Virus record (IMG/VR): IMGVR_UViG_2562617085_000008
From: a virus
Lineage: Duplodnaviria; Heunggongvirae; Uroviricota; Caudoviricetes
Strand: one strand, 5' to 3'
Length of the DNA stretch: 64,000 bases
In this document: one piece after another, positions 3,001 through 6,000 of the stretch
Layout: every line of letters begins with the position of its first letter
Numbering within the stretch: position 1 is the first letter of the stretch
Program-made: the position numbers

Positions 3001-6000
3001 CAGAATTCACCGGGAGGCACCCGGCATCATGCTGTATACAGAGATTAGGCATATATCCAGGCTTCTCATCGCAGGAGCCTTTTTACATGCAAAAAAAAGC
3101 CCGAGTGGGTTCGGGCAACAGCATGAGATACTTGCATTGTCATTTTTATCGTGTGGATTTTAACCAGGGTTTATAAGGCTGCGCAACTGCGCGGCCTTTT
3201 TCGTTTTGCGGGCTGCGGTTCTCCTCTTTTGATTCTCCTTGTGGCCGGACCGTGGCCCGCAACTGTTGAGGAAAATCCCGGAAAGGGGAGGAATAATGAC
3301 ATTTAAACATTATGATGTTGTCAGGGCGGCGTCGCCGTCAGACCTTGCGGAAAAGCTGACACACAAACTGAAAGAGGGCTGGCAACCGCTATTCTGAACG
3401 CAGCCGGGCGCACCTCAGCCTTCATCAGTGGTAAGGCACCGGAAATCAAACCCTCGCCCGGCGGCAACACGCCATCGGGTCCGTCTGCAGATACGTCCGT
3501 TCGCACAATCTCCCTGCTGCCGGCAGCCGGAGAGGCTGCTGCGCAGGGCTGGAGCATTAAGGATGGCGGAATTCAGTTGTCAGATGGTGTATTTAAGATC
3601 ACCAGGCAGAGCAATAAAACCTGGTCCCTGACGCATCCGGTGGATGACGCAATTACCCTGCTGACACAGGGCGGCAGACTGAACTGTAAGTTCCGCCTGT
3701 CAGGCGCACTGACCAACAATCAGTTCGGGCTGGGGATTTATCTGTATACGGATGCTCCCGTTCCTGATGGTGTGGCGATGACGGGTACCGGTAATCCGTT
3801 CCTGATGTCGTACTTCACTCAGACCACTGACGGCAGAGTGAATCTGATGCATCACAGGAAAGCCGGAAACACGAAGCTGGGGGAGTTCGGCGATTACGGT
3901 AACGACTGGCAGACGCTGGAGCTGGTGTTCACCGCCGGCAGTGCCACGGTTACTCCGAAACTGAATGGAGTGGCTGGCCCGGCATTCCAGGTTATAAAAG
4001 ACAGTCTGACACTGGGACTGAATGCGCTGACGCTGACGGATGTTACAAAAAATGCAGCGTATGGCGTTGAGATAGAAAGTCTGGTGCTGGAGATAAATGC
4101 ACCGGCATCATCATAAAAAGTGAGCCAGTCAAATGGAAGGTATCGTTAAACTCACCGGTAGTGTCAGTGGGTCGTCTGAGACGCCTGCATGAGTTATCAG
4201 AGCCATCAGTAGTTAACTGGTGGCTTTTTTATTGTTGTCAGCTTCCGGATAACGGGAGACGGGGTATGTACCAGATGGAAAAAATCACAACGGGTGTGTC
4301 ATACACCACGTCAGCGGTGGGGACGGGATACTGGTTACTGCAGCTGCTGGACAAAGTCTCTCCGTCCCAGTGGGTGGCGATAGGCGTGCTGGGGAGTCTG
4401 CTGTTTGGGCTGCTGACATATCTGACGAACCTGTATTTCAAGATTAAAGAAGACCGGCGTAAGGCGGCGCGGGGAGAGTAAAGTGATGAAGAAAAAATAC
4501 GAACTGGTTGTTAAAGGGATAAATAATTACCCGGATAAGATTACTGTTACTGTGGCACCGGAAATTGGTGGGTATCCGTCACTGTTGTTGCCAGATGTGG
4601 CGATTAGTCTTGACCGTACTGAAGGTGCCACGCTGGAGTTTTACGAAGCTGAGGCGAAAAAGCAGGCGAAGCAGTTTTTCATGGATGTTGCTGCCGGGTT
4701 ATGTGAAGGGGATGGTCCGTTACCGGAAAAGCGTCCCGTAATTTTAGAGGCGCAGGATGTGTTGATAACCTACAGAGGAAAACTACCGGGAATAATTACG
4801 GGTTCTCTGAAGACTCCACCGCTGGCCTGAAGACTTAACATATCCAGGGATTTGAAATCGATAAACCCTGATAAATATCCATGAACGCAAAAATCAGATA
4901 CGGCCTGTCGGCTGCCGTTCTGGCGCTGATTGGTGCAGGGGCGTCTGCGCCTGAAATCCTCGACCAGTTTCTGGATGAAAAGGAAGGTAACCACACCACA
5001 GCATACCGTGATGGTGCGGGTATCTGGACCATCTGCCGTGGAGCCACCCGGGGGGATGGTAAGCCTGTTATTCCTGGCATGAAGCTGTCGAAGGAAAAAT
5101 GCGACCGGGTTAACGCCATTGAGCGTGATAAGGCGCTGGCATGGGTGGAGAAAAACATCAGAGTGCCGCTGACCGAACCCCAGAAAGCGGGGATCGCGTC
5201 ATTCTGTCCGTACAACATTGGCCCCGGTAAGTGTTTCCCGTCGACGTTTTACAGACGGATTAATGCAGGAGATCGAAAAGGTGCCTGCGAAGCGATTCGC
5301 TGGTGGATTAAGGACGGTGGCAGGGACTGCCGTATTCGCTCAAATAACTGTTACGGTCAGGTATCCCGTCGTGACCAGGAGAGCGCGCTGGCGTGCTGGG
5401 GAATCGACAGATAAGCAGAATATTTTGCTGAAAAATGAGGTTTGCTTACATGGACGGATAACACGAAATCCTGCAAATTGGCAAAATGTAAGTGAATAAA
5501 GTCAAAACAGTTGTTTAACACTCAGGCACCGTAATGATGCCTTTGTCATTTCTGCGCATCTCACGCGCATCTCACAACACAGAACCTTTCAGGATGACCC
5601 TTGAGGATACCGGTTTGGCTGTCGGTGCCTTTCTGTGGGCTGGATTCCTGTGAGACAAGGTTCATCACTAAAAGGAAATAACCGATGAATATGATGGCCG
5701 TGCCGTTTCACGGCAACTCTCTTTATGTAGTTAACCATAATGGCGAACCATACGTTCCCATGAAACCTGTCGTTGCGGGGATGGGGCTGGCCTGGCAATC
5801 ACAGTTGGCTAAGTTAAGACAGCGTTTTGCGTCAACTATAACGGAAATCGTTATGGTTGCTGAGGATGGGAAACAACGCAATATGGTGTCCATGCCACTT
5901 CGAAAACTTGCCGGCTGGCTACAAACCATTAATCCCAACAAAGTAAAACCCGAAATCCGCGATAAGGTCATCCGGTATCAGGAAGAGTGCGACGATGTTC

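Follow-up and report, generated by a model that had tools for sequence, protein, structure and literature searches.

A DUF1327/YdfR gene between holin and endolysin in an Escherichia coli O157:H7 prophage, with a possible late accessory role on RNase E or RNA

We analyzed a 64,000-nucleotide stretch of DNA (the window), filed in IMG/VR as the Caudoviricetes virus record IMGVR_UViG_2562617085_000008. In its lysis cassette, a small open reading frame (ORF) lies between a gene for a pinholin-type holin (S) and a gene for a signal-arrest-release (SAR) type endolysin (R). The ORF is the YdfR/DUF1327 gene (4486..4830, + strand; 114 aa and a stop codon; PF07041, phrog_406, WP_000731259.1) of a lambdoid prophage of E. 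coli O157:H7, and the membership of its product in the YdfR family is practically beyond doubt. It is a gene of a catalogued family in a known position and no new kind of element. In our preferred reading, the product would be no core lysis protein but a late cytoplasmic accessory protein which would act on RNase E or RNA. We give this reading a probability of about 0.38, and it should be taken as tentative.

Family assignment

In profile searches, the YdfR-family protein matched Pfam DUF1327 (PF07041) with 155.2 bits (cut-off 25) and an E-value of 5.5e-46 over profile positions 1-92 of 93. It also matched phrog_406 (E-value of 3.8e-64), which is filed as 'unknown function', and no model matched in a search of NCBIfam. 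The conserved DUF1327 positions Y5-E6-L7, G11, R44, E46-G47, and L50-E51-F52-Y53-E54 are all found in the window protein, and these core positions are invariant or at least 90% conserved in our alignment (A1). A previous sequence-only reading of the window had proposed profile searches, fold prediction with Foldseek, and a conservation check in related lysis cassettes, and it held that no function could be assigned from the sequence. That last statement needs qualification: the protein has a named family (PF07041/YdfR) with a K-12 member in the same slot.

Over its 348 nt, the ORF is 100% identical to the gene for WP_000731259.1, which is annotated in E. coli O157:H7 as a 'YdfR family protein'. 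The surrounding 5 kb are also 100% identical to O157:H7 TW14359, EC4115, and other strains, which identifies the window as O157:H7 chromosome and the gene as locus ECSP_RS08655. The founding member of the family is K-12 YdfR (b1555, UniProt P76160) of the cryptic prophage Qin, which belongs to the same family by hidden Markov model. The K-12 genes are ordered as essQ holin, 4 nt, ydfR, a 4-nt ATGA overlap, rrrQ lysozyme, and rzpQ/rzoQ, and the slot of ydfR is the same as that of the window gene. Among Shiga toxin (Stx) phages, the hypothetical protein ACI32380.1 of the Stx1 phage YYZ-2008 is identical to the window protein and has the same cassette position. The proteins annotated as 'YdfR family protein' in BP-4795, Stx2-converting phage 86, and Stx2a_WGPS2 are 98-100% identical (93.8% for phage 86), again in the same position. 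Unlike these Stx phages, the window prophage has no stx upstream and carries a deleted nanS-p/DUF6645 gene.

Start codon and junctions with the neighboring genes

The mechanical ORF runs on the + strand from GTG 4483 to TGA 4830 (115 codons). Its GTG was ruled out as the start codon: in 94 related sequences, the codon at 4483 is GCG in most cases, whereas ATG 4486 is universal. RefSeq also places the start of the same protein at ATG 4486 (114 aa). Since the Shine-Dalgarno sequence and the ATG with its 4-nt spacing are preserved and the GTG is usually GCG, the 114-aa RefSeq form is probably the real product. The length of 115 aa given by the sequence-only reading is right for the mechanical ORF and one residue too long for this probable product. 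Its location of the ORF at 4483-4830, between pinholin and SAR endolysin, proved correct, as did its statement that the protein has no hydrophobic segment. The highest 19-residue Kyte-Doolittle mean is 0.89; the holin reaches 1.83 and the endolysin N-terminus 1.67. By hydropathy a membrane segment is absent, and the isoelectric point is 5.5.

The coupling junction with the holin covers 4471..4485 (+). It consists of the Shine-Dalgarno GGGGAGAG (4471-4478) inside the last holin codons, the holin stop TAA (4479-4481), and the spacer AGTG (4482-4485), directly followed by ATG 4486. The distance from GGAG to the ATG is 9 nt. The start 4 nt after the holin stop, which had been noted before, is thus confirmed with AGTG as the intervening bases. 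Every locus with a P21-type holin has the TAA + 4 nt + ATG arrangement, including those in which the identity of the DUF1327 protein falls to 41-46%. The tight coupling that had been proposed exists on the holin side, with its 4-nt spacing and Shine-Dalgarno, but not on the endolysin side, where 50 nt separate the ORF stop from the endolysin ATG. This spacer (4831..4880, +) is AU-rich, has no Shine-Dalgarno, and is conserved among DUF1327-bearing cassettes. Of the leader ...GATAAAYCCTGATAAATATCC-ATG before R, 45 nt are near-identical in most of our YdfR-bearing loci (L001-L093). No RNA structure above background was detected in the 50-nt spacer (z = -0.39; 67 of 200 shuffles fold equally well). 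K-12 differs here, with the ATGA overlap between ydfR and rrrQ in place of the gap.

The minimal cassette of phage 21 is S-R-Rz/Rz1. In phage 933W, the YdfR gene is absent and R begins 4 nt after S with nothing between them, so the description of the window gene as an extra ORF is appropriate. The 933W cassette (S-R-ant-Rz/Rz1) has the same holin, SAR endolysin, and spanin families as the window, and an ant-like gene lies between R and Rz in both. The difference is at the S-R junction. The R gene of 933W uses a Shine-Dalgarno within the 3' end of S, at the junction which serves the YdfR gene in the window. The window has the DUF1327 gene inserted there, and its R lacks a holin-embedded Shine-Dalgarno.

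Domain architecture and predicted structure

The protein can be divided into two parts. The N-terminal core (4486..4707, +; aa 1-74) defines the family and is predicted to contain three beta strands and one long helix. The variable C-terminal module (4708..4827, +; aa 75-114; EGDGPLPEKRPVILEAQDVLITYRGKLPGIITGSLKTPPLA) is replaced or extended in relatives. In alignment A1, the core has the conserved motif DRxEGxxLEFYEAxA. Over aa 1-74, its identity to K-12 YdfR is 46%, and the motif is kept down to 39% identity. Cores of 71-72 aa also exist as stand-alone proteins. The AlphaFold2 model of the core alone has a predicted local distance difference test (pLDDT) score of 88.2 and a predicted template modeling score of 0.77, with strands at residues 5-14, 18-27, and 38-43 and a helix at residues 50-73. 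In the full-length model, residues 1-74 have pLDDT values of 73-88, and the values of residues 75-114 are below 50. The models thus predict a confident beta-beta-beta-alpha fold for the core and disorder for aa 75-114. The comparison with Foldseek gave no convincing structural relative (best E-values of 0.32 against PDB and 0.01 against BFVD). A PDB sequence search with the family profile returned only coiled-coil (GCN4) matches with E-values of 0.03 or above on the columns of the long-form extensions, and none on the core. A double-stranded-RNA-binding domain, which would appear as an alpha-beta-beta-beta-alpha fold with a significant structural match, was considered and not found.

The family is strongly mosaic. 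There are at least two core alleles, MKKKYELVV...GGYPSLLLPDV in the window and MTQNYELIV...KKRFDGEIFDL in K-12. These are combined with at least four unrelated tails: the 40-residue tail of the window, the K-12 tail, which is unrelated to the C-terminal 40 residues of the window protein, a short tail CSEARYTIKINSS, and extended forms. Long DUF1327 forms have 176, 183, 206, 268, or 287 aa, and Pfam gave no match on their C-terminal extensions. In one further protein (P0152), a window-type tail follows a different, coiled-coil-like N-terminus.

Position, distribution, and selection

We compared 93 loci, namely 80 viral contigs, 8 species genomes, 3 phage records, K-12, and the O157 strain PV15-279. 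The last holin codon lies 7 nt before the YdfR ATG in all 92 loci with readable upstream sequence. An endolysin gene follows at a distance of 46 to about 900 nt in every locus except three cases at contig ends. Where both flanks are readable, the gene is always between holin and endolysin (91 of 91 loci; Escherichia/Shigella). Annotations of phages mEp460 and Evi and of the Qin-like PhiR42_1 show the same order. Behind another holin family (PF16080, 101 aa), a frameshifted long form was found ahead of the same kind of lysozyme (L099-L102; L099 2501-3017). Two distant members are rare exceptions to the holin/lysozyme slot. One is a stand-alone 71-aa core located 24 nt after Rz on a short read-assembly contig (L098, 503-718), and the other is a stand-alone 72-aa core located 28 nt before tail gene L (L096, 3001-3219, CP075169.1) in a setting that looks like a decayed prophage. 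Holin and YdfR identities are uncoupled: the holin of phage Evi is 98.6% identical to that of the window and its YdfR is 41% identical. Co-variation of holin and YdfR alleles, which we looked for in the Escherichia loci as a sign of partnership, was not seen.

In relatives, the S-R gap is filled by unrelated ORFs, some of them on the opposite strand. The GC content at third codon positions (GC3) is 0.465 in the YdfR gene, 0.70 in the holin gene, and 0.60 in the endolysin gene. The mosaicism of alleles and tails, the other ORFs of the gap, and the low GC3 together point to the S-R junction as a hot spot of recombination whose cargo can be exchanged. Long-form relatives have opposite-strand ORFs of 86-104 aa before the endolysin (L080 2964-3227, L087 3317-3631, and L099 2965-3225, all -). 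Neither Pfam nor PADLOC matched the opposite-strand ORFs in the gap of relatives, and these may be further cargo of the hot spot.

Of 5,426 complete E. coli genomes searched by megablast, 2,924 carry the gene, at 6,162 places in total and up to 8 per genome; the holin and the endolysin were found at 8,855 and 10,686 places, and these counts are rough since the three genes differ in length and divergence. By tblastn, the protein is present in 101 phage records, mostly of Stx1a and Stx2c phages. The cassette DNA of the window is matched by 368 phage records, and only 101 encode a YdfR-family protein. Many Stx1 and Stx2c phages and some Stx2a phages carry the gene. Outside Escherichia and Shigella, the family almost vanishes. 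A HMMER pass found DUF1327 in 54 clusters among 1.84 billion representative proteins, and a pattern scan found 8 DUF1327 loci among 185,579 species (one genome each). Two of these 8 loci are in metagenome bins labelled Veillonella and Bacillota and have the appearance of E. coli DNA assigned to the wrong bin. Copies of the gene with frameshifts or truncations are common. The gene is an optional passenger of P21-type cassettes and is dispensable for the existence of the cassette.

The gene is nevertheless real. By the Nei-Gojobori method in related loci, the ratio of nonsynonymous to synonymous substitution rates (dN/dS) is approximately 0.08 for both holin and endolysin and 0.30-0.35 for the YdfR gene (0.25-0.28 in the core, 0.32-0.36 in the tail), and the pooled ratio of nonsynonymous to synonymous polymorphism (pN/pS) of the ORF is 0.43 in the annotated frame versus 0.87 and 0.91 in the other frames; the pairwise values are non-independent and serve as description only. 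The gene is under purifying selection in the annotated frame only, and the constraint is weaker than on S and R. A consensus scan of the + strand detected no promoter-like site at 3000-7500 and no strong terminator between the holin and the YdfR ORF. The lack of an own promoter and terminator suggests expression as part of the late operon and not in the lysogen. The word 'moron', which had been offered for the ORF, fits its optional presence (it is missing in 933W) and its divergent GC3, but not this lack of an own promoter or terminator. On the 5' side, the only nearby terminator-like site (4199-4227, +) is upstream of the holin. It is a hairpin of 12 pairs followed by TTTTATTGTTG, located approximately 40 nt before the holin ATG and within the late transcript.

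Proposed role of the YdfR-family protein

The one informative paper on YdfR is that of Gopel et al. (RNA Biol 2026; PMC13232886). When a library was screened by two-hybrid assay against RNase G, K-12 YdfR residues 1-72 were recovered three times, and this fragment gave stronger two-hybrid signals with RNase E constructs (PMC13232886). With full-length K-12 YdfR, a signal was obtained for Rne 1-597 alone (PMC13232886). Strep-YdfR and FLAG-tagged Rne 1-598 eluted together, and the YdfR eluate was rich in DNase-resistant nucleic acid (PMC13232886). The ydfR gene is essentially silent during normal growth (PMC13232886). In one screen, over-expression of ydfR raised the minimum inhibitory concentration of streptomycin three-fold. 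The Stx-phage genomic survey of Pinto 2021 (PMC8136144) and the 2023 paper on stx-flanking regions (PMC10462455) describe the pinholin/SAR-endolysin cassette, and the passages located in them by cassette-related terms do not mention the YdfR gene. All of the RNase E and RNA data were obtained with K-12 YdfR, not with the window protein.

On this basis, we propose the following mechanism by homology. The YdfR gene would take over the holin-embedded Shine-Dalgarno and the 4-nt stop-start spacing at the place where R follows in minimal cassettes. With this junction and no promoter or terminator of its own, the gene would be expressed solely from the Q-dependent late transcript, and synthesis of its product would keep pace with that of the holin. 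The N-terminal domain of the product, at 46% identity, may act as the K-12 YdfR domain does and bind RNase E at its catalytic N-terminal half, and the protein may likewise associate with RNA. The action would take place in the cytoplasm, on the processing or decay of late mRNA or otherwise on RNase E. The protein would not be among those that breach the envelope, and lysis would not need it. Consistent with such a role, the gene is not bound to one holin: it is also found behind the PF16080 holin, the two stand-alone cores are outside the slot, and the identities of holin and YdfR are uncoupled.

Phage modulators of RNase E include T4 Srd, T7 gp0.7, and phiKZ Dip. The host protein RapZ contacts the N-terminal catalytic half of RNase E (PMC13232886), and YdfR would do likewise if the K-12 result transfers. 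We detected no homology of the YdfR protein to T4 Srd, T7 gp0.7, phiKZ Dip, or RapZ.

Several points weigh against an action on RNase E or RNA. The data come from a homologue that is only 46% identical to the window protein, and this over aa 1-74 only. Over-production of K-12 YdfR altered few transcripts and did not slow growth, and the authors concede that the RNA may stem from a contaminant (PMC13232886). The YdfR co-purification was also reported without a nuclease-treated repeat, unlike the YegJ experiment of the same authors (PMC13232886), so RNA could bridge YdfR and RNase E. The near-absolute slot between holin and SAR endolysin in Escherichia is also expected from a function in lysis. 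In addition, the K-12 ydfR deletion appears in the supplementary hit lists of an envelope-leakiness screen (Paradis-Bleau 2014, cited in PMC13232886). The K-12 genes ydfR and rrrQ overlap, so read-through from a resistance cassette into rrrQ could alone cause leakiness, and we infer that the phenotype may be a polar effect on rrrQ.

The slot, the junction, and the deletion phenotype can also be read as signs of a cytoplasmic protein which modulates the timing of lysis by binding the basic C-terminal tail of the pinholin or the unreleased SAR endolysin. Such a protein would resemble T4 RIII, a cytoplasmic antiholin, and P1 LydB, a holin antagonist encoded beside the holin LydA, both of which are small soluble proteins encoded with lysis genes. 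P1 LydB is called an antiholin in PMC9025707. The strongest argument for a timing modulator is the near-invariant slot in 91 of 91 readable loci, which is kept even behind the PF16080 holin. Translation of the gene is also tied to that of the holin by the conserved junction. Moreover, the insertion of the gene deprives R of the holin-embedded Shine-Dalgarno, so that the expression balance of the cassette would differ between cassettes with and without the gene. The listing of the deletion among the leakiness hits also favors this explanation, but it may be polar as described above. The strongest arguments on the other side are the absence of the gene in 933W, YdfR alleles which do not track holin alleles, and the stand-alone cores outside the S-R slot. 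The much weaker constraint than on S and R (dN/dS of 0.3 versus 0.08) points in the same direction. Similarity to known lysis proteins, including antiholins and timing regulators of the T4 RI/RIII, P1 LydB, and S21-71 types, was not seen either: there was no lysis-category match in Pfam, PHROGs, or NCBIfam and no structural match, phrog_406 is of 'unknown function', and no sequence or fold similarity to T4 RIII or P1 LydB was found. We know of no timing phenotype for any DUF1327 member. On balance, a timing modulator is unlikely.

The optional presence of the gene also suits another explanation, that it is passenger cargo of a hot spot at the S-R junction, unrelated to lysis and RNA, and serves in counter-defence or exclusion or is near-neutral. 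This would account for the presence/absence polymorphism, the GC3 of 0.47 next to 0.70 and 0.60 in the neighbors, the extreme mosaicism with two N-terminal alleles and at least four C-terminal modules, and the unrelated ORFs in the same gap of relatives. The common frameshifted or truncated copies, the weak purifying selection, and the tiny family limited to Escherichia-like hosts (54 clusters, 8 loci) also fit. However, the annotated frame, and no other, shows purifying selection, relatives with as little as 39% identity still have the core motif, and a specific partner is reported for the K-12 member. PADLOC defence models matched neither the window protein nor two long forms at an E-value of 0.01 or below. 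We rate mere cargo as improbable to the same degree as a timing modulator. The junction itself allows still another interpretation, in which the act of translation and not the product resets the ratio of holin to endolysin or their timing. The R gene of 933W uses the Shine-Dalgarno at the holin 3' end, while in the window this sequence serves the ORF, and R, 50 nt downstream, has an AU-rich leader that lacks a Shine-Dalgarno; in K-12, the overlap of the ORF stop with the R start (ATGA) would give serial coupling. Yet the amino-acid sequence is under frame-specific purifying selection, the core folds confidently in AlphaFold2, and an ORF that ranges in length between 72 and 287 codons hardly fits a pure spacer, which makes this interpretation very improbable. 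A chance ORF would be consistent with the small size only. The strong Pfam and PHROG matches, the hundreds of homologues, the conserved start context, the frame-specific constraint, and the accumulation of the K-12 homologue as a protein upon expression (PMC13232886) exclude it for practical purposes. An accessory protein for RNase E or RNA therefore ranks first, followed by a timing modulator and passenger cargo at the same level, then by a translational spacer, and last by the excluded chance ORF.

The surrounding lysis cassette

The P21-type class II holin of the pinholin type is encoded at 4266..4481 (+). Its 71-aa sequence begins with MYQM (Met at codons 1 and 4), and it matches PF04971 (E-value of 8.1e-33) and phrog_9876/phrog_20 'holin'. 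In RefSeq it is the 'class II holin family protein' WP_000284517.1. The SAR-type endolysin R (4881..5414, +; 177 aa) matches PF00959 (E-value of 1.5e-24) and phrog_7 'endolysin'. It has an Ala/Gly-rich hydrophobic N-terminus, with the hydropathy peak of 1.67 at residue 9, and the residue spacing E35-x8-D44-x5-T50. The cassette ends with the Rz i-spanin (6408..6875, +; PF03245, E-value of 1e-46; phrog_13). A 61-aa ORF embedded in Rz in another frame (6628-6813, +) has a lipoprotein-like N-terminus and represents the Rz1 o-spanin. The PF04971 holin, the PF00959 lysozyme with E-x8-D-x5-T, and the PF03245 Rz with embedded Rz1 place the cassette in the P21 type. Pinholin and SAR behavior of the holin and the endolysin are presumed from their family membership.

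The Ant-like gene between endolysin and Rz (5685-6254, +) has P22_AR_N and ORF11CD3 domains and matches phrog_524 'anti-repressor Ant'. It is the second non-lysis insert of the cassette and has the same position in 933W. Its stop shares one base with the ATG of a hydrophobic 48-aa ORF (6254-6400, +), which ends 8 nt before Rz. In TW14359, this ORF is the RefSeq hypothetical protein WP_000539792.1, and the 933W annotation has no such coding sequence. It could be a small membrane protein of the lysis cassette. In the O157:H7 strain PV15-279 (L001, 7051-8264), IS1203 lies between the endolysin and the Ant-like gene of an otherwise identical cassette.

Other features of the window

Upstream of the holin, the nanS-p-like gene (3297-4116, +) is a deletion remnant, in which RefSeq annotates an incomplete piece of DUF1737 joined to a C-terminal piece of DUF6645. 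In phage YYZ-2008, the intact homologue measures approximately 1.85 kb, and a 648-aa form is located at 61254-63200 of the window. Two tRNA genes are found further upstream, one with anticodon CAT (2540-2615; tRNA-Ile in RefSeq) and a tRNA-Arg with TCT (2696-2772). Downstream of the tRNA pair is the small RNA (sRNA) STnc100 (2882-3090; 175 bits), followed on the opposite strand by the anti-GcvB sRNA AgvB (3092-3151; 56.6 bits, just at the threshold). No stx gene is present in this region (2540-3151), which is the usual stx position in Stx phages.

A second prophage late region occupies the end of the window (59601-64000). It contains a DNA methyltransferase gene (59601-60659), a weak tRNA match (60706-60765), a second STnc100 (60851-61043), a second AgvB (61045-61106, -; 96.5 bits), and the intact DUF6645/esterase-like ORF of 648 aa (61254-63200). 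A second P21-type holin gene starts at approximately 63881 and is cut by the window end. Rfam also identified the prophage-borne small RNAs DicF antisense RNA (48838-48889, -; 76.7 bits) and sok antitoxin RNA (55620-55794, +; 111.7 bits).

Implications

The gene is present in over half of the complete E. coli genomes searched, and it is located in the operon that controls toxin release and lysis. If YdfR modulates RNase E or the timing of lysis, the Shiga-toxin yield per induced cell could change. A broader hypothesis is that DUF1327/YdfR proteins are holin-coupled RNase E/RNA-binding factors which tune the stability or processing of the late transcript, with the exchangeable tails giving different specificities. 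We consider it doubtful, a speculation for the family as a whole. The late transcript in Stx phages also carries stx. If the hypothesis is true, a factor made in fixed proportion to the pinholin would set the yield of toxin and virions before lysis.

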